A DNA stretch of 40,110 nucleotides from a virus. Its lineage: Duplodnaviria; Heunggongvirae; Uroviricota; Caudoviricetes. The stretch lies in the IMG/VR virus record IMGVR_UViG_2897369580_000002. The stretch is one strand, 5' to 3'. Under the pieces are notes generated by a model. That model did no database searches. It was not told the origin of the DNA and worked only from the letters and a program-made list of their open reading frames with translations. Of this stretch, positions 1-40,110 are shown in pieces; positions within the stretch are counted from its first letter, which is position 1, and the number at the start of each line of letters is the position of its first letter. The position numbers and the translations under genes were made by a program.

Positions 1-516
1 ATGAAATTTAAAAAATGTCTTCTGCCTGTGGCAATGTTAGCGTCATTCACTCTGGCAGGATGCCAGTCAAATGCTGATGATCATGCCGCCGATGTTTATC
101 AAACCGATCAACTGAATACCAAACAAGAAACTAAAACCGTTAATATTATTTCCATTCTTCCCGCAAAAGTTGCCGTAGACAACGCCCAAAATAAACGGAA
201 CGCACAAGCCTTCGGCGCGCTTATTGGCGCTGTCGCTGGCGGTGTTATCGGCCACAACGTCGGGTCTGGCAGCAATTCCGGAACGACGGCAGGTGCAGTT
301 GGCGGCGGAGCTGTAGGCGCGGCAGCGGGTTCTATGGTGAATGATAAAACCTTAGTGGAAGGTGTTTCTTTAACATATAAGGAAGGCACCAAAGTGTATA
401 CCTCCACCCAAGTGGGTAAAGAGTGCCAGTTTACGACAGGTTTAGCCGTTGTTATTACCACGACGTATAACGAAACGCGTATTCAGCCAAATACCAAATG
501 TCCTGAAAAGAGCTAA
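1..516 (+). CDS. yfgH: outer-membrane lipoprotein with glycine-zipper domain (YfgH-like, host)
   Basis: Lipobox LAGC after signal peptide; Gly/Ala-rich zipper GALIGAVAGGVIGHNVG; followed by a 179-aa partner as in the yfgH-yfgI pair. Symbol is tentative, assigned from size, order and the guaA remnant downstream. Confidence 0.6.
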   Translation: MKFKKCLLPVAMLASFTLAGCQSNADDHAADVYQTDQLNTKQETKTVNIISILPAKVAVDNAQNKRNAQAFGALIGAVAGGVIGHNVGSGSNSGTTAGAVGGGAVGAAAGSMVNDKTLVEGVSLTYKEGTKVYTSTQVGKECQFTTGLAVVITTTYNETRIQPNTKCPEKS

Positions 517-531
517 TAATCAGGAGGAGTC

Positions 532-1071
532 ATGAAGAAAGTTTTTCTTTGCGCCATCTTAGCCTCCTTAAGCTATCCGGCTATCGCCTCATCATTGCAG
601 GATCAACTCTCGGCTGTCGCAGAAGCGGAACAGCAAGGTAAAAATGAAGAGCAAAGGCAGCATGACGAATGGGTCGCGGAGCGCAACAGGGAAATCCAGC
701 AAGAGAAGCAACGTCGCGCAAACGCCCAGGCCGCGGCTAATAAAAGAGCGGCAACGGCAGCAGCGAATAAGAAAGCTCGTCAGGATAAACTGGACGCCGA
801 AGCCACTGCGGACAAAAAACGCGATCAAAGTTATGAAGATGAGCTACGTAGCTTAGAGATTCAGAAACAAAAACTGGCGCTGGCGAAAGAAGAAGCCCGC
901 GTTAAGCGCGAAAACGAATTTATCGATCAGGAACTGAAGCACAAAGCTGCGCAAACCGATGTGGTGCAATCTGAAGCTGACGCAAACAGAAATATGACTG
1001 AAGGCGGTCGCGATCTGATGAAAAGCGTGGGTAAAGCAGAAGAGAATAAATCAGATAGCTGGTTTAACTAA
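532..1071 (+). CDS. yfgI: secreted coiled-coil protein (YfgI-like, host)
   Basis: ATG with strong RBS CAGGAGGAG; N-terminal signal peptide; charged coiled-coil body; 179 aa. Symbol tentative (synteny-based). Confidence 0.55.
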   Translation: MKKVFLCAILASLSYPAIASSLQDQLSAVAEAEQQGKNEEQRQHDEWVAERNREIQQEKQRRANAQAAANKRAATAAANKKARQDKLDAEATADKKRDQSYEDELRSLEIQKQKLALAKEEARVKRENEFIDQELKHKAAQTDVVQSEADANRNMTEGGRDLMKSVGKAEENKSDSWFN

Positions 1072-1110: not shown

Positions 1111-1142
1111 AAAAACCCTCTGTAGTAACAGAGGGTTTTGTT
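1111..1142. terminator. bidirectional rho-independent terminator
   Basis: AAAAA-CCCTCTGT-agta-ACAGAGGG-TTTTGTT: 8-bp perfect stem flanked by A-run and T-run. Confidence 0.8.
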
Positions 1143-1163
1143 CATTCATAGTGCAGGGTCAAA

Positions 1164-1178
1164 TCATTCCCACTCAAT
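1164..1178 (-). other. guaA 3'-terminal codons (att core remnant at left prophage junction)
   Basis: TCATTCCCACTCAAT is the reverse complement of ATT GAG TGG GAA TGA (I-E-W-E-stop), recalled as the GMP synthase C-terminus; phage genes start immediately to the right. Confidence 0.6.
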
Positions 1179-1288
1179 TATTTACGGATACCATAACCAA
1201 TTGAGTGATAACATTTTTCCAAAACTCAATTTTCCTCGTACCGTTTTATATACCGTCACCGGAAATCAGTACCATGAAAAATGCCATG

Positions 1289-1771
1289 CTATCTGGTCAG
1301 GGTGTCGTACTGTTTTTCACAGACTCTTCCGGCTTCGGCTGCCCGGTCAGCATACTCTGCCAGTTGTCTGTTTCTCTCGAGAGATTTACTGAGCACGTCG
1401 GCAAGCAAAACTCCGGTGTCTGCGGCTGACGTCCCAGCGCCGACAATGGCGTTATACTGCCTGAGCTGCTCACGGATGGCAACGAGCTGTTGCTGCAACC
1501 GGCCAGCGCGAGCGGCAGCATCAAGAGCATCATTGCGCGCCTGGTCGATCCTCTGCTGCGCTTCACGTTCATTGATCGCTTTCTCCTGTTCGTAGTGCTG
1601 ACGAATTCTCTCATCTTCGGTTTTGCGGTCTTCTTTCGCCTGCGCATACCCGGCGTCGTACTGACGACTGCCGTGTACACTCCAGGCAGCAACTCCTGAT
1701 ATGACCAGAACAGCAAGCACCGCCATGATAATCAACTGTTTCCGGTATGCTTTTACGAATGCCCAGATCAT
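1289..1771 (-). CDS. i-spanin (Rz-like)
   Basis: ATG start; N-terminal TM segment [18 protein letters not shown]; charged coiled-coil periplasmic domain; last gene of lysis cassette. Confidence 0.75.
1297..1533 (-). CDS. o-spanin (Rz1-like lipoprotein) embedded in +1 frame of Rz
   Basis: Internal ATGATG at 1533-1528 gives [14 protein letters not shown] with lipobox LAGC; Pro/Ser-rich mature part; wholly inside the Rz gene. Confidence 0.5.
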   Translation of the reverse strand: MMLLMLPLALAGCSNSSLPSVSSSGSITPLSALGRQPQTPEFCLPTCSVNLSRETDNWQSMLTGQPKPEESVKNSTTP

Positions 1772-3158: not shown

Positions 3159-5621
3159 TCAATTCCCTGTTAATTGCAAAACTTGCTCTTCCAGCTTTTT
3201 AACCCTGCGTCTCATCATCGCAGATTCCAGAATCAGAGCCTCTTCATAACGGATACCGTAACATTCACCAGCCTCGACGGCTTCGCGTACCAGAACCTTT
3301 GTCTGTATAAGTGGGTAAACTCCTGCAGAATGCTCTTCTTCCGTCACATCCCTGTATTCTGCCGGGGTCTCATTCCACTTGTCATAACAGATAAATGCCA
3401 GTCGTGACACATCTATGCCTTCATTCTGAAATACACTGATAACATGCTGCGCAACTGCACCAAAGTGCCATCTTGCTCCGTCTTTACCTTTCACTTCGAT
3501 CCTGTCAAGGTACTGGTATGAAACCCATTCCACTCTTTCCCATGCGTCCAGTATTTTCTCATCAATAACCTCTGGAGCAGTCTTGAAACGCGCATCGGAC
3601 AGCACCGTAAACGCTGACTGGGTAAATCCCCCCGACCATGCACGACCAGCCAACCCAAGAGAATAAGTATTCGTTGTCGATGGTGTCATGGCTGAATCAG
3701 AAAACTGTATATATTCTGAATTTCCAGTAGATATTCGAATATTTCCATTTATTAGCGACATAGTGCCTTTAGTATTATCACTATTGAATAATTTCAATTG
3801 CGAACTTATACCGCCTCCCACAGCCAGAGATACATCGCCTTCAGCAAGCATTCTGAATTTATCTGCAGAAACAAGCGTCTGGTTAGCAAGGTTAAAATAT
3901 TTAACCCACCATTCAAAACGCCCTGACATAGTCCCAACGTACTGACCAAGCGCAGGGACGTGAACAACATTGCTATTTGTAGTGCCGTCTATACTGGAAA
4001 TACCAGTCACCGCTGATGCAGAACTCAGAATATTATTTCTGTCACCCGGATGTTTAATTTCAACAAAGTTCCTGATACACCCTTCCTCGAAGGTAACCAC
4101 GCCGGAAGAACTATACATGGGGAATATTGACGCATAATTACTGCGTGCAGCATCTAAGAAACGAATGGTTGTAGATGTCTGCAGATCTCCTGATTCATTT
4201 TTCCCATCACACCCAGTCATTAGAATATTACTGGCAATATTATTATTTCCCTGAACGGTGACTCCGTGCGCCTGCTTTGCGTCCGATTCAGAGTAATCAA
4301 CCAGCACATTCGAAATCAGGTTACCAGTCCCCTTGCCAACAACTACTGCGGCGTATTTTGGGTTGTTAGCCATTACACTGCTAATGATATTATTCGTTGG
4401 GGCAGTTTCCGTCTCAGTTCCATTGTAAACAACGTGCTGACACTCTTCACCAATAACATTGCTGACAATGTTATATTTTGCTGCTGTTTTAAGTTCCACT
4501 GCACCAAACTGAGGATAATTTCTGGCTATCACACCATCAATTAGCGTATTTTGCGATGAATCAAAAAGCACACAACCTGCTTTTTTATTATTTGCGAACC
4601 CTAAATACTCTCCTCTTATATCTCTAACAATGTAACCTGACGGAATACCATTATTCGGATAAGCGATCAAGCTAAATCCTGTTCCTCGCGTATTTGTAAA
4701 TCTGATATTTTTAACCGATACATCATGGCCACCTGAAAATGACACCTGGTGTCCCTGCACACTATCATCTGATTTATTTCCCATAATTGTTAGCGTACTA
4801 AGCATGCCACCATCGGGCATGTTAAAAACCAGATGATTACCATCTCTGTCATACTGTTTTATCGTTCCCCCACCTGTTCCGTACAAGCCACAACGTGAAA
4901 GAGAAACTAAAGATGTATTGAATACCCCTTCCGGAACAAAAACACTGCTAAACGAATGTAATGATTTTGTAAAAGCATCCTTGTTATCATTTAAGATTCC
5001 ATTTTGAGCTCCAAAATCCTTAATGCTGACACCATCACGCATCTTATCCTGGAACGTTCTGTATACCGCTCCAGAACCATACTGAATAAACCAACCAAAA
5101 CCACCAATAACTCCGGCGATTGCAGCATCGACATAATTACGCATTGAGCGATTATTTACAGCGTCCTGCTCAAGTGATGGATCGGCAAGGTTAGATATTC
5201 TGTTTTGCTTTGCATCGTAATATTTTGCAAGCAAAGATGGTTTCATCAATGCACGTCTGAACCACCCAAAACATCGCTGGATCAGCATCGTCAGGTAGTC
5301 AAATGCATCCTCATGAACTTCGGGGAAAAATTTTCCCTGATTGCGAAGATCAGTCTCCTGCACCACATCAAGCACACGCTCTATCGTGATTCGCCAGCCA
5401 GCAGCAAGCGGCGACGGAAGAACCACTGCACCGCCACTATAAGTTCCCGCCCCTGTTACCGTATAACCAGCATCCAGCACTAGTTTTGTAACGTTACCGT
5501 TAAGGTCAGACACCTGAACAACCAGGTCGGATTTTTTGAAAATACGGAAGGTATACGGAAATGATGTCGTAACGCCGTTACCTGTGTATTCGTTGTGGTC
5601 AACTTCGGTTGAGACCGTCAT
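3159..5621 (-). CDS. tailspike / tail fibre with beta-helix domain and C-terminal intramolecular chaperone (peptidase S74-like)
   Basis: Central pectate-lyase-like signature (GVSIKDFGAQNGILNDNKDAF); C-terminal ~146 aa begin with SDARFK auto-cleavage-type motif typical of self-cleaving chaperone domains; RBS GGAG. Confidence 0.8.
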   Translation of the reverse strand: MTVSTEVDHNEYTGNGVTTSFPYTFRIFKKSDLVVQVSDLNGNVTKLVLDAGYTVTGAGTYSGGAVVLPSPLAAGWRITIERVLDVVQETDLRNQGKFFPEVHEDAFDYLTMLIQRCFGWFRRALMKPSLLAKYYDAKQNRISNLADPSLEQDAVNNRSMRNYVDAAIAGVIGGFGWFIQYGSGAVYRTFQDKMRDGVSIKDFGAQNGILNDNKDAFTKSLHSFSSVFVPEGVFNTSLVSLSRCGLYGTGGGTIKQYDRDGNHLVFNMPDGGMLSTLTIMGNKSDDSVQGHQVSFSGGHDVSVKNIRFTNTRGTGFSLIAYPNNGIPSGYIVRDIRGEYLGFANNKKAGCVLFDSSQNTLIDGVIARNYPQFGAVELKTAAKYNIVSNVIGEECQHVVYNGTETETAPTNNIISSVMANNPKYAAVVVGKGTGNLISNVLVDYSESDAKQAHGVTVQGNNNIASNILMTGCDGKNESGDLQTSTTIRFLDAARSNYASIFPMYSSSGVVTFEEGCIRNFVEIKHPGDRNNILSSASAVTGISSIDGTTNSNVVHVPALGQYVGTMSGRFEWWVKYFNLANQTLVSADKFRMLAEGDVSLAVGGGISSQLKLFNSDNTKGTMSLINGNIRISTGNSEYIQFSDSAMTPSTTNTYSLGLAGRAWSGGFTQSAFTVLSDARFKTAPEVIDEKILDAWERVEWVSYQYLDRIEVKGKDGARWHFGAVAQHVISVFQNEGIDVSRLAFICYDKWNETPAEYRDVTEEEHSAGVYPLIQTKVLVREAVEAGECYGIRYEEALILESAMMRRRVKKLEEQVLQLTGN

Positions 5622-8883: not shown

Positions 8884-11433
8884 TTATTTACCTAGCATGA
8901 ACTGCGATGGTGGGATCAGAAAGTCGTTCCCCTGCTCACGCTCAACACGGCGCTGATAACGCTCAAGAGAGCCTGGGTCAAGGGCATCTTGTATCCGGTT
9001 CAATATTAAACCATTCATCGCCGTACGAAGCCAGAACACGTTGAGGAATGGCGTATTGTCAAGTGCCGTGCGATACCAGTCACCCAAATCTGCATCCCCT
9101 CTCGTGGTCTGCTGGAGCAGCGTGATAATGCTGTCAGCGTTCGATGCTGCTGGCCCCATTAGCGACGTAACCGGCCCGGCCCCCATGCGGTTGACCTCAC
9201 CAAACATGAAGTCACCCAAGATGCCAAGACCGCCCCCCTGAGATGCGGCTGCGAGAAACGTCTTGGCATCTGCCGGGCGTGGTGTTTGCCCTTTCAGCAT
9301 GAGTTTTGACTGCATGGAGATATAACCAAACATAGTCGCCCAGACAAAGAGGTTTGCAGCACCAAGGAAAGCCCCCTTCCCGTTACGTAGCAGCGCATTC
9401 GTCAGCGATCCGGTTTTCGACTCACCAAGCCCAGCAGGAATATAACCACGCCCGAATACTTCGCGTCCTAGTACGTTCTGCATGAAGCTTGCAGTGAACG
9501 ATTTGTACTGACCAGCGAATCGTATTGCTTCCCCAGCCACCGTTCCTGGCACCGTGCCCATCTTCATAAACGCCTGCGTGCGATCGCCAGGCTCTGACAT
9601 GGCGATATTCAGACGGTCAAGGATGTAGCCGCGCAACTGCCCTTCCAATTGATCGCGTGCGTCAGCGATAGCGCGCTGCGTTGGTTTGATCCCCTTACTC
9701 TCTACATAACCGGCAATCACTTCGTCAGGCACGCCGCGGATGCCGCTGGTCGTCATGAACTTACGACCTTCGCTATCGGCCATGTCCATGTTGCGAAAAA
9801 TTTCCCACTCACGTTCGCCAATACCGTGCAGATCCAGCACGCGTCGCAGGTCTTCCGGTAGCCGCGCATGAGACTGGTCAGCATTCTTTGCAAGCCAGTT
9901 GGTTATCATCATGGCGTTGCTGTTGCGACCGCTCTCGGTCCAGAAGTTCATGAGGTTGTACTTAAAGAAAAGCTGCTGCGCGCGACCAAGCTTTCCATTC
10001 AGCGTGTCATCACCAGATATGCGCCGGATGATTTCCTGCGTCATGGAGTCGGAATAAACTCCGATAGAGGAAAGGATCTCTTTCTGCTCCGCGCTGTTGT
10101 AACGCGTGAAGCGGCCTCTCATAGCACCAAGCAACGCCTGCATAAAATTCTGCCCTTGGTAGCGCATCTCGGTAGCGGCGATAGGCACGTCGTTAAACGA
10201 TGAGATTACCGCGCCACCAAGTTGGCTCATACGCAACCAGCCGCGTACAGCCGCCGACGCATTGGCCCAGCCTACGCTGCCAGGAATATTTAGCGAGCCG
10301 TCAACCTGCGGCATTACGGTACGGTTAATGCGACGCACCTTCGTCATGTAGTCAGCCAACGCTGCCGGTCTTCCGGATTTGCTGATATCTTCAGCAATGG
10401 CGTCCGTCAGGTACTTAAACATGTTCTGTGGGTTAGTGCCCAGTACGCGCATCATGCCCGTTGTGCGGGCAGCGCTGTTTAAGCCACCAAACAGCGCTTC
10501 TCGCAGGCTGCCGGTGCCGAATTGCTGGTTGTACTCGTGCCACGAGATACCATCTTTGAAGTGCAAAATTCGCTCTTGGCTGGCGCGTTTAGCTGCGTTC
10601 GCCGATCCCTTAAAGCCATTCATCCAATCGGGCTTTTCAGATGTAAGATGCACGCCGGAAGCCAGCCCGTTATAAATGTTACGCATGAACTGCTCGCGGT
10701 CAGCCACGCCGTCAAAAGTGCGCTCATCAAGGCGCGGGAGAATAGCATTTCGCCATGCTTCATAACCTGCGGCGCGGATCTTCATGATGTCGTGTGACTG
10801 GCGCACTATATAGCCCGGCTCTTTGCGTATCCATGCCCCGGCGCGGTTCTCATCAATGCGCGCAGTTTCCTGCCATTTCATGATGATTTGTGCAGCGCTT
10901 ACGGATTGCTTTGTCATACCGTCAGTTGACTGCCCGCGCCCTATGCGCCACATTGCATCGGCAATTTCCCGGTCATTGCTGCCGCTGGCGATGAATTGCA
11001 CCAGCCCGGCACGGTCAAAATCGTAGTTGATACCGGAATGATACTTGCCGCGCAGTTGCGCCACCTCCGAAGATACCGACCGGCGGGCGCCGGTACGCGC
11101 ATCGTTGCGGCCAACCAGCATTGCTTCAAGCCCGATATCCGGGCGGTCTTTCCAGATAGTACGAAGCTCTCTAAGTCGTTGTGCGGCAATACGGGCGTCG
11201 ATTGCCTTATTGCGAGCCTCAATCTGTTTTGCCAGCATATCGGCATTGCTCAGTTCTTCCGCTGCGCGCATCGCGGCCTCTTCCAGAGACAGCGCCTCAT
11301 TGGTCGCCAGAATTCGCCTAGTGGTGTCGTTCATGTCACGCACCAGCGACTCCATCTCATCGGAAGAAAGCTCGCGACCAGCGGCAGCATTTACACTGCG
11401 CTCGCACTGCGTCAAAAATTCGTTTGCTGCCAT
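8884..11433 (-). CDS. large internal virion / ejection protein
   Basis: ORF-track start at 11436 is GTG; ATG at 11433 with RBS GGGGGA overlaps the stop of the upstream gene (ATGA); large mostly helical protein in the structural block. Confidence 0.6.
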   Translation of the reverse strand: MAANEFLTQCERSVNAAAGRELSSDEMESLVRDMNDTTRRILATNEALSLEEAAMRAAEELSNADMLAKQIEARNKAIDARIAAQRLRELRTIWKDRPDIGLEAMLVGRNDARTGARRSVSSEVAQLRGKYHSGINYDFDRAGLVQFIASGSNDREIADAMWRIGRGQSTDGMTKQSVSAAQIIMKWQETARIDENRAGAWIRKEPGYIVRQSHDIMKIRAAGYEAWRNAILPRLDERTFDGVADREQFMRNIYNGLASGVHLTSEKPDWMNGFKGSANAAKRASQERILHFKDGISWHEYNQQFGTGSLREALFGGLNSAARTTGMMRVLGTNPQNMFKYLTDAIAEDISKSGRPAALADYMTKVRRINRTVMPQVDGSLNIPGSVGWANASAAVRGWLRMSQLGGAVISSFNDVPIAATEMRYQGQNFMQALLGAMRGRFTRYNSAEQKEILSSIGVYSDSMTQEIIRRISGDDTLNGKLGRAQQLFFKYNLMNFWTESGRNSNAMMITNWLAKNADQSHARLPEDLRRVLDLHGIGEREWEIFRNMDMADSEGRKFMTTSGIRGVPDEVIAGYVESKGIKPTQRAIADARDQLEGQLRGYILDRLNIAMSEPGDRTQAFMKMGTVPGTVAGEAIRFAGQYKSFTASFMQNVLGREVFGRGYIPAGLGESKTGSLTNALLRNGKGAFLGAANLFVWATMFGYISMQSKLMLKGQTPRPADAKTFLAAASQGGGLGILGDFMFGEVNRMGAGPVTSLMGPAASNADSIITLLQQTTRGDADLGDWYRTALDNTPFLNVFWLRTAMNGLILNRIQDALDPGSLERYQRRVEREQGNDFLIPPSQFMLGK

Positions 11434-25366: not shown

Positions 25367-25443
25367 GTGGTATTAGCTCAGTTGGACAGAGCAACCGCCT
25401 TCTAAGCGGTTGGTCGCAGGTTCGAATCCTGCATGCCACGCCA
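25367..25443 (+). tRNA. tRNA-Arg (anticodon TCT), phage-encoded
   Basis: Hand-folded cloverleaf: acceptor GTGGTAT/ATGCCAC, D-arm GCTC..GAGC, anticodon stem ACCGC/GCGGT with loop CTTCTAA, T-arm GCAGG-TTCGAAT-CCTGC, discriminator G, encoded CCA. Confidence 0.9.
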
Positions 25444-36894: not shown

Positions 36895-37143
36895 ATGAAA
36901 GGTGCATTAGGTAAGAAGGAACTCCTGGCGGTGGTGCCACTGTCATGGAGCACTATCGACCGTATGGAGCGCGCAGGGGAATTTCCTAAACGCTGGTATA
37001 TCACTGACAAACGCTGCGCATGGAACCGTGACGAAGTTGAGCGTTGGCTTGATGAACGTCAGGCAGCAAGCCCGGCAGAGTTCCAGGGTAAAAAACCTCC
37101 TGTTCAGCAACGTGTATATCGTCCCGTGAGCAACGCTGCATGA
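36895..37143 (+). CDS. AlpA-family HTH regulator / excisionase candidate
   Basis: LLAVVPLSWSTIDRMERAGEFPKRWYITDKRCAWNRDEVERWL matches the AlpA/Xis-type motif; RBS AGAGAGG. Confidence 0.65.
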   Translation: MKGALGKKELLAVVPLSWSTIDRMERAGEFPKRWYITDKRCAWNRDEVERWLDERQAASPAEFQGKKPPVQQRVYRPVSNAA

Positions 37144-37252: not shown

Positions 37253-37552
37253 GTGAGAAAGTTAAGCCGACTTGAAAAATATCACATGAATAAGGTTTCA
37301 ATGCGCAGTCCGTCAAAGATTGTCGCCGTTACTCCTGCGGCGATAGAGATCGAAAAACGCGCGATTGAAAGAGAGAAAAAAGGGCAGTTCCGCATTGCCG
37401 CCCACCTTTGGCTTCAGTGTATGGATGTTGCTTCTGGTGATGTTGAACGTGCAAGGATCGCGATTCTCAGGGACCAATGTATCACAAAAGGTAACGGACT
37501 TCGCCGTGGCGACTATAGCGGCATAGGATGTTGTGGGGTGGTTTATGACTAA
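37253..37552 (+). CDS. hypothetical small protein
   Basis: GTG start with RBS GAGGG upstream; alternative internal ATG; 99 aa. Confidence 0.4.
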   Translation: MRKLSRLEKYHMNKVSMRSPSKIVAVTPAAIEIEKRAIEREKKGQFRIAAHLWLQCMDVASGDVERARIAILRDQCITKGNGLRRGDYSGIGCCGVVYD

Positions 37553-38853: not shown

Positions 38854-40110
38854 TTATTTATTACTGTCTTCCATCCACTTCTCAAACTTCGACGGGGAGA
38901 ACGGAATCAGATCCGTATGCTCCCCGTCAATCCAGGAATCAATCATATCTGCCCACTGCTGCAACATGTAGGCGCGCTGTCTGGCGTATTCCGCTTTGTT
39001 ATATACGGCGCGCACACCTTTCTGCTCATGTGCCAGAGCCTTTTCAATCCAGTCTGAAGGATAACCAGCCTCATGCAACAACGTACTGGCTGTACGGCGC
39101 ATATCGTGTACGGTGAAGTCCTGAATATGCTCACCATCTTCATTTATTATTTTCACCGTTCTGTCGATCAGAGAGTTCAACGCGGCATTAGATAATGGCT
39201 TCCGGAAATTGTAACGACCAGGAACCAGGTATTCACTTCCACCAGCGCACATCTGCAACCCAACCAATATATCCTGTGCTTGTTTAGGCAGGTAAATAAC
39301 GTGCGCCCGGCTTCCCTTCATGCGGCCTGAAGGAATTGTCCATGTCCATTTTTTAAAATCTATTTCATCCCACGTTGCATTGGTGAATTCGCCTTTACGA
39401 ACCATAGTGATAAGCACCAGCTTTAAAGCCATTTTCATAGTGCCCATAGCACCAATGGCATCCAGCGTGCGGAAGAACAGACCAATTTCTTCTGGTGTCA
39501 GTGTTCGCTCTCGTGGTTTAAATATGGCGATAGACGAAGGTTTAATGTCAGCAGCAGGATTAAACAAACCATGACCACGGTCATTGGCGTGACGGTATAC
39601 GCTGCTGATGATCTCCCTGGCCTGTACTGCTGTTGCCCGACCACCGCGTTCGACAATCCGGTCACACAAATCACGAACCATCGATGTGGTAATTTCAGCC
39701 ATCATTTTGTTGCCAAGAACCGGAAGTATGTCACGGTCGATCACCGCCTGCTTCATTGCGCGGGTACTTTCAGCCAGGATGACGTGTTTCATATAACTGT
39801 CGGTATGTACCGCAAACGTCTCGGCACCACGAATCTTTTTGATACCGTCACGTTTAGCCGCAGCCGGCGACTGGCCTGCTTTAAGCAGCTTCTTTGCAGC
39901 AATCAGTTCTTCTCGCGCTTCTGCCAGGCTGATACCGTCACGCCCATACTGCCCGATTACCAGTGTTTCGCGGCGACCGTTGATACGGTAGTCATAGCGA
40001 AACGAGACCGTACCTGACGTAAGCACAGCTACATACAGCCCGTCACGATCGGAAACTTTGTACAGTTTGTCCTGTGGCTTGAGGTTTTTTAATTTTGTAT
40101 CGGTAAGCAC
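38854..40110 (-). CDS. tyrosine integrase (P4/CP4-57-like, N-terminal arm-binding domain); 5' end at or beyond window edge
   Basis: Catalytic residues in HDMRRTAST and ALAHEQKGVRAVY; N-terminal DGLYVAVLTSGTVSFRYDY arm-binding-like domain; ORF touches window end (GTG at edge). Confidence 0.9.
   Translation of the reverse strand: MLTDTKLKNLKPQDKLYKVSDRDGLYVAVLTSGTVSFRYDYRINGRRETLVIGQYGRDGISLAEAREELIAAKKLLKAGQSPAAAKRDGIKKIRGAETFAVHTDSYMKHVILAESTRAMKQAVIDRDILPVLGNKMMAEITTSMVRDLCDRIVERGGRATAVQAREIISSVYRHANDRGHGLFNPAADIKPSSIAIFKPRERTLTPEEIGLFFRTLDAIGAMGTMKMALKLVLITMVRKGEFTNATWDEIDFKKWTWTIPSGRMKGSRAHVIYLPKQAQDILVGLQMCAGGSEYLVPGRYNFRKPLSNAALNSLIDRTVKIINEDGEHIQDFTVHDMRRTASTLLHEAGYPSDWIEKALAHEQKGVRAVYNKAEYARQRAYMLQQWADMIDSWIDGEHTDLIPFSPSKFEKWMEDSNK

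Follow-up and report, generated by a model that had tools for sequence, protein, structure and literature searches.

An attL junction at the 3' end of guaA in an epsilon15/phiV10-like prophage, with a proposed lambda-like layout of its phage arm

What becomes of guaA when a prophage is joined to its last codons, and what is served by the 9-bp inverted repeat that lies at the same place? A preliminary description of the DNA analysed here, a stretch of 40,110 nucleotides (the window), placed the left junction of a prophage at the 3' end of guaA and read the repeat beside it as a possible integrase binding site. We conclude that window positions 1162-1260 are very probably the attL site (host arm, core and phage P' arm) of an epsilon15/phiV10-like (Uetakevirus) prophage of about 39.1 kb, for which a lambda-like arm layout is proposed, and that the repeat most likely marks, as judged from its sequence, a binding site for the host DNA-bending protein IHF. 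The attL junction at guaA is an already known integration site, since the same 17-mer has been published as an attP/attB core and the junctions of phage ZX5 have been verified (PMC9782041). Our contribution is instead a testable map of the attL arm, with its proposed overlap, C' half-site, IHF site and arm-type sites. The host and phage features that frame the junction are the following.

1-516, plus strand: yfgH, host flank, glycine-zipper lipoprotein (Pfam PF05433; annotated as yfgH in strain 4/0 and K-12)
532-1071, plus strand: yfgI, host flank, DUF5384 (Pfam PF17358, E 4e-62; annotated in strain 4/0 and K-12)
1112-1139, no strand: bidirectional host terminator common to yfgI and, at the empty site, guaA; perfect 12-bp inverted repeat AAAACCCTCTGT/ACAGAGGGTTTT, identical in the K-12 empty site
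1289-1771, minus strand: Rz-like spanin (DUF2514), the first phage gene (Pfam PF10721, E 5e-41)
36895-37143, plus strand: AlpA-family small DNA-binding protein, candidate excisionase (Pfam PF05930, E 3e-5)
38854-40110, minus strand: tyrosine integrase with Arm-DNA-bind_3 (PF13356), Phage_int_M (PF22022) and Phage_integrase (PF00589); its start codon is at the window's last base

Homology to phages begins at about position 1161-1163 of the window. The Rz-like spanin, the GH19 endolysin and the holins share about 90-96% identity with Escherichia phages ZX5, phiv142-3 and phiV10 and about 82% with epsilon15, while the integrase, in which Pfam recognises the arm-binding, central and catalytic domains, is 99% identical to the phiV10 Int and 87% identical to that of epsilon15. 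Phage lysis genes immediately to the right of the junction and an integrase at the opposite end, as the preliminary description had it, are indeed what the annotation gives. A phage-borne tRNA-Arg (anticodon TCT) lies between the portal and terminase blocks at 25367-25443 on the plus strand.

The sequence TCATTCCCACTCAAT, at 1164-1178, is the reverse complement of the final four codons and stop of guaA (ATT GAG TGG GAA TGA, encoding I-E-W-E-stop). It matches the annotated K-12 terminus exactly, being identical to the low end of the K-12 guaA CDS (L002 3459-3473; CDS 3459-5036, minus strand). The proposed convergence of guaA on yfgI across a shared terminator is likewise found in K-12, where the end of guaA lies 92 bp from the yfgI stop with a bidirectional terminator between them. 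This terminator, at window positions 1112-1139, was not flagged by a simple terminator scan; once the prophage is in place, its position is downstream of the minus-strand phage lysis operon. At the junction itself two features are superimposed.

1162-1178, no strand: att core (common core O of attL), 17 bp, AATCATTCCCACTCAAT; identical in attL, attR, phiV10 attP, epsilon15 attP and K-12 attB
1164-1178, minus strand: orphan guaA end (last four codons plus stop), identical to K-12 guaA

When attL, attR, phiV10 attP, epsilon15 attP and K-12 attB are aligned, the flanks swap exactly at the two ends of the 17-bp core, which is present as a single copy in the window even if 3 mismatches are allowed. 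Window 1162-1178 is the exact reverse complement of attgagtgggaatgatt, the core reported for attP and attB of phiV10, epsilon15 and vB_EcoP_ZX5, located 190 bp from the integrase start and at the guaA 3' end (PMC9782041). The attB, attL and attR junction PCR products of ZX5 were verified there by Sanger sequencing, and the phage was also found to be spontaneously induced (PMC9782041); in a separate study the target of the epsilon15 integrase cluster is given as the guaA 3' flank (PMC8138268). By our explanation, the phage tyrosine integrase joined attP to an identical stretch of 17 bp, made up of the last 15 nt of guaA and 2 nt downstream. Because this identity covers the end of the gene, guaA is left intact at attR and a 15-nt orphan remains at attL; the window's copy of guaA is that orphan.

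If so, a second core next to an intact guaA should lie to the right of the window, and this is what extension of the sequence reveals. E. coli ATCC BAA-2469 matches the window at essentially 100% over 22 kb, with a 1-nt difference in length, and carries the second core, in direct orientation, at L005 26301-26317, 190 bp past the integrase start. There the core is fused to a full-length annotated guaA (a 1578-nt CDS, not a pseudogene) with guaB and xseA beyond, and the prophage measures about 39.14 kb from core to core. The RefSeq record of this strain is 1 nt shorter over window 18000-40110, and it annotates a frameshift in a PerC-family ORF that is intact in the window (37253-37552, plus strand, 99 aa); the discrepancy probably reflects a difference in sequencing or assembly.

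Comparison with the unoccupied locus points the same way. K-12 and many other genomes have an uninterrupted yfgI-guaA region with a single core copy and the same flanks, and many E. coli genomes contain, at 100% identity, the 400-bp empty site that results from joining the window's left flank to the right-hand flank of attR. The contiguous yfgI-guaA site is present in 4570 of 5425 genomes, about 16% being without it, and this particular left junction occurs in 362 of 5416 complete E. coli genomes (~7%). Synonymous guaA differences just inside attR (AGTTGCTGGTGG versus GGTAGCTGGCGG in K-12) were considered as phage-derived; the idea was rejected, because this allele is also present in empty sites that are 100% identical. 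The second core with its intact guaA, the empty sites and the published core thus uphold integration into the guaA 3' end. The accompanying claim that the phage supplies a replacement terminus has to be refined: what it supplies is a 3' UTR and a terminator, and guaA is never truncated, since its last 15 nt lie within the attP/attB identity. The left boundary of the prophage is now fixed to the base and guaA is confirmed as undisrupted, results whose importance is limited.

The inverted repeat poses a different problem. It consists of CACTCAATT (1171-1179) and AATTGAGTG (1199-1207), which are perfectly inverted over 9 bp and stand 19 nt apart, and a repeat search extends it to 17-nt arms (1171-1187 and 1191-1207) that are 82% complementary and separated by 3 nt. 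Perfect inverted repeats of at least 9 bp with spacers of up to 30 nt number 13 in the window, against 3.5 +/- 1.8 expected from first-order Markov simulations, and a random flank would yield a repeat of this kind, anchored in the 17-bp core, with a probability of about 0.001. When viral contigs were scanned for the core, 76 attL, 22 attR and 17 attP junctions were recovered, which provided 70 distinct phage-side arms. The distal arm of the repeat agrees with the core arm at 9/9 positions in 36 of these, at 8/9 in 33 and at 6/9 in one (epsilon15), so the repeat, which retains at least 8 of its 9 positions in 69 of the 70, is more than a chance occurrence.

Conservation along the arm falls into blocks. 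Nearly invariant among the 70 arms are TATTTACG (1179-1186), CATAAccAATTGA.TGatAACA (1192-1213), TTT (1216-1218) and TACCGTTTTATATACCGTCACCG (1239-1261), and the stretches 1187-1191 and 1219-1237 are variable; within the repeat, 37 arms have G and 31 have C at position 1205. All three occurrences of the 8-mer ACTCAATT in the 40-kb window fall inside 1172-1231. Its third copy (1224-1231) was considered as the member of a triplet and dropped, as it lies in a variable stretch and is missing from phiV10 and epsilon15. One attP variant on a metagenomic viral contig (L010 4827-4860) is without about 52 bp between the core and the equivalent of 1224-1231, and thus has neither the TATTTACG block nor the distal repeat arm, with the arm-type sites kept; either a natural deletion or an artefact of assembly could account for it. 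Our reading of the attL arm rests on the following elements.

1169-1175, no strand: proposed 7-bp overlap (crossover), CCCACTC; placed from the dyad and the GIsul2 site described below
1171-1179, no strand: proximal repeat arm CACTCAATT, within the plus-strand IHF-like 13-mer ACTCAATTATTTA (1172-1184)
1176-1187, no strand: proposed core-type half-site C', AATTATTTACGG; placed from the dyad with the P-arm half-site
1194-1206, minus strand: IHF-consensus 13-mer ACTCAATTGGTTA, proposed H'-type bending site; one mismatch to WATCAANNNNTTR
1214-1218, no strand: T tract (a minus-strand A tract 8-12 nt upstream of the 13-mer); TTT at 1216-1218 conserved in 70 arms
1238-1259, minus strand: two predicted tandem arm-type integrase sites, GTACCGTTTT (1238-1247) and ATACCGTCAC (1250-1259), 12 bp start to start; invariant in 70 arms

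The 13-mer at 1194-1206 includes 8 of the 9 bases of the distal repeat arm (1199-1207). In this register all 70 arms have at most one mismatch to WATCAANNNNTTR, although consensus matches are weak predictors of IHF sites. The bases that the consensus specifies (TCAA, TTA and W) are invariant in the 70 arms, and variation is confined to two of the four N positions and to consensus position 2, which is mismatched in 69 of the 70; one arm matches the consensus perfectly, as does a divergent arm (L051) whose core-adjacent sequence differs and yet keeps CATAACCAATTGA at the same distance. An earlier register at 1198-1210 (TATCACTCAATTG), which fitted only 17 of 70 arms under strict and 50 of 70 under relaxed matching, has been superseded by this one. 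The RefSeq record of epsilon15 carries predicted IHF sites at equivalent positions, including that of 1188-1210. Matches to the consensus within one mismatch number only 33 in the 40-kb window, and three of them fall at 1172-1210.

The proximal arm is part of a similar sequence, as the plus-strand 13-mer ACTCAATTATTTA at 1172-1184 is also one mismatch away from WATCAANNNNTTR. Since both 13-mers are this close to the consensus and lie in inverted orientation, the extended repeat with its 17-nt arms can be described as two inverted IHF-like 13-mers, and we propose that the repeat exists for this reason. The proximal 13-mer itself cannot be an ordinary IHF site, because it overlaps the core, where the integrase must bind. 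The distal IHF-type site at 1194-1206, on the other hand, would bend the arm, and such a bend might allow integrase bound at the arm-type sites to reach the core.

The suggestion that the repeat is an integrase binding site accordingly survives in part. Its proximal arm overlaps the probable crossover region and C' half-site, but at its distal arm the IHF consensus is matched in every one of the 70 phage-side arms, and the predicted integrase arm motif across the family is GACGGTAT/ATACCGTC, not the inverted repeat. Most of the guaA-targeting integrase loci that we examined, which range from the Enterobacterales to Beta- and Alphaproteobacteria and reach down to 48% integrase identity, have 2-7 copies of this motif upstream of int. 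In the int-proximal arm it forms one inverted and two tandem copies, and the epsilon15 record annotates an integrase site at the equivalent of 1250-1259. TGACGGTAT occurs five times in the window, where 0.22 occurrences are expected. Three copies are within the integrase gene (39590-39598, plus strand; 39842-39850 and 39932-39940, minus strand) and one is in a tail gene (10916-10924, minus strand). Two copies encode RDGI and sit at positions (+171 and +261) that carry the motif in relatives down to about 59% identity. In the epsilon15 record, two of the intragenic copies are annotated as integrase sites.

The position of strand exchange can be proposed from the symmetry of the core. CTGTTAATCATT, CCCACTC and AATTATTTACGG form a dyad with 9 of 12 positions symmetric (shuffle P = 0.023), and no other strong dyad places its overlap within the block of identity; attB reaches only 5/12 in this register. 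Because this dyad falls in the identity block and its centre lies within the GIsul2 site GAGTGGGA, we place the overlap at 1169-1175 and the C' half-site at 1176-1187, and a half-site there would explain the invariance of TATTTACG. In this arrangement, the C-terminal domains of the integrase monomers would sit on the core half-sites and the N-terminal domains on the ATACCGTC repeats, for which the DNA between would have to be bent sharply. The IHF-like block at about 1192-1218 is the sole conserved element between the core and the ATACCGTC repeats, and it is placed like lambda H'.

The attP of lambda has a C-O-C' core, the H' IHF site between the core and the arm-type sites, and the arm-type sites P'1-P'3. 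The order predicted on this arm is lambda-like, namely a core half-site, then a site with the IHF consensus at about 20-35 bp from the centre of the overlap, and finally tandem arm-type sites at about +66 to +87. There are also differences, since the integrase belongs to a different subgroup (its N-terminal arm-binding domain, PF13356, is IntSXT/P4-like), the IHF 13-mer points the other way, and this arm has two arm sites rather than three. In addition, unlike lambda, this phage integrates at the end of a protein gene, and its sites are predictions from sequence.

Other explanations of the repeat have to be weighed against IHF binding. One of these, which we consider possible but unlikely, is that the distal arm is an auxiliary core-type integrase site, so that the core-binding domain would read the inverted right half of the core in the P' arm and, in attP, also a mirrored left half in the P arm, thereby helping to assemble or orient the intasome. 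The distal arm does resemble the overlap plus C', since the extended arms CACTCAATTATTTACGG and CCATAACCAATTGAGTG are complementary at 14 of 17 positions, and the mirror GGAATGATT/AATCATTCC in the P arm gives attP a symmetry that IHF alone leaves unexplained. However, the half-sites would stand tail to tail instead of head to head on either side of an overlap, the conserved distal block reaches past the repeat (ATAACA and the T tract), and the divergent arm L051 keeps the IHF positions and loses the GTG part of the repeat. The split at position 1205 (37 arms with G, 31 with C) also speaks against a recognised half-site, and the P-side copy can be read equally as direct repeats of AYAGCWAA. It is less probable still, and in our view very unlikely, that the repeat has no function and is a by-product of A/T-rich, TCAATT-containing core and arm sequences. 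Such a view would accommodate the third ACTCAATT copy (1224-1231), which is unconserved even in phiV10, and the dozen further 9-bp inverted repeats in the window, but it is difficult to reconcile with a chance probability of about 0.001 and with a distal block that, between variable neighbours, has been kept in the 70 arms as well as in the divergent L051.

The least probable of the alternatives is that the repeat acts as RNA: the minus-strand late (lysis) transcript would form a hairpin in its 3' UTR, which might, for instance, stabilise the message or be a target of RNase III. The minus strand of 1160-1220 folds at -18.4 kcal/mol (z = -4.2), the mean over the 70 arms is -16.4 kcal/mol (z -4.2) compared with -8.1 for the plus strand, and the minus-strand fold is upheld in 97% of arms. 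Of the three fixed mismatches of the stem in DNA, two become G-U pairs on the minus strand, and predicted RNase III sites are annotated nearby in the epsilon15 record. Nevertheless, this G-U asymmetry is not significant (an estimated ~0.07-0.25), a G.G mismatch falls in mid-stem in 31 of 70 arms, and the outer extension and the loop-closing pairs are unconserved. Compensatory change is absent as well; the core arm being fixed by guaA, no such change is possible, and the RNA fold is therefore inseparable from the DNA repeat. An Rfam search of the repeat gave a single match, with E 0.74, far under its gathering score. A role of the repeat as terminator or promoter was rejected, as scans of 1000-1500 for both found nothing and no terminator-like T tract. 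In place of an integrase site, the reading that we retain for the repeat is thus IHF binding at the distal arm, together with the core itself.

The int-proximal arm, seen at attR in ATCC BAA-2469, contributes both to the fate of guaA and to the symmetry of attP. It gives guaA a new 3' UTR and terminator, AACCCTCTGTTTTTGCAGAGGGTT followed by the T-rich tail TTTGTTTTTA. The phage-arm terminator (L005 26233-26256, CCCTCTG-CAAAAA-CAGAGGG) has the same stem as the host terminator at 1112-1139 (CCCTCTG-TAGTAA-CAGAGGG). In the same arm, at L005 26274-26309 (about 165-200 bases past the window's right end), a perfect inverted copy of AATCATTCC, namely GGAATGATT, is found 18 nt away from the core. In 25 of 26 distinct int-proximal arms this mirror of the left core half retains 7-9 of its 9 positions at a fixed spacing. 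The attP layout is therefore GGAATGATT-N18-AATCATTCC followed by CACTCAATT-N19-AATTGAGTG, each half of the core being inverted 18-19 nt away in its own arm. That this mirror layout is functional beyond one IHF site seems quite unlikely to us. If true, the guaA-targeting integrase family would have a feature so far undescribed, which might be either a set of auxiliary core-type integrase sites that determine directionality or a pair of hairpins, in the 3' UTRs of guaA and of the late operon. No match to the IHF consensus within 1 mismatch and no sigma-70-like integrase promoter was found in scans of the int-proximal arm. GAATAG (CTATTC) repeats, which are CTATCG in distant relatives, flank the int-proximal terminator across the guaA-targeting integrase family (L005 26200-26285; L126-L164), and may be sites for the AlpA-like excisionase.

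Uses of the same site by other elements place this junction in context. GIsul2 inserts by means of its integrase at 5'-GAGTGGGA-3' in the guaA 3' end (PMC9376610). The same guaA codons are targeted, and its 8-bp site coincides with the middle of the 17-bp core, the proposed overlap included; however, GIsul2 is a sul2 resistance island and not a phage, and only these 8 bp are common to the target. The guaA site is commonly used, the codons at which this prophage resides being hit by a resistance island as well. Much closer are phiV10, epsilon15 and vB_EcoP_ZX5 (Uetakevirus), whose attP/attB have the same 17-bp core at the same 190-bp distance from the integrase start. They share the gene order in which the integrase lies on one side of attP and Rz, endolysin and holin on the other, and their att region differs only by single bases in the variable stretches of the arm. 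In contrast, the tail spike and some early genes differ from those of the three phages. The tail spike (3159-5621, minus strand; 820 aa), with a beta-helix and a C-terminal endosialidase-chaperone (Peptidase_S74) domain, is the portion of the lysis-proximal region that differs among related phages.
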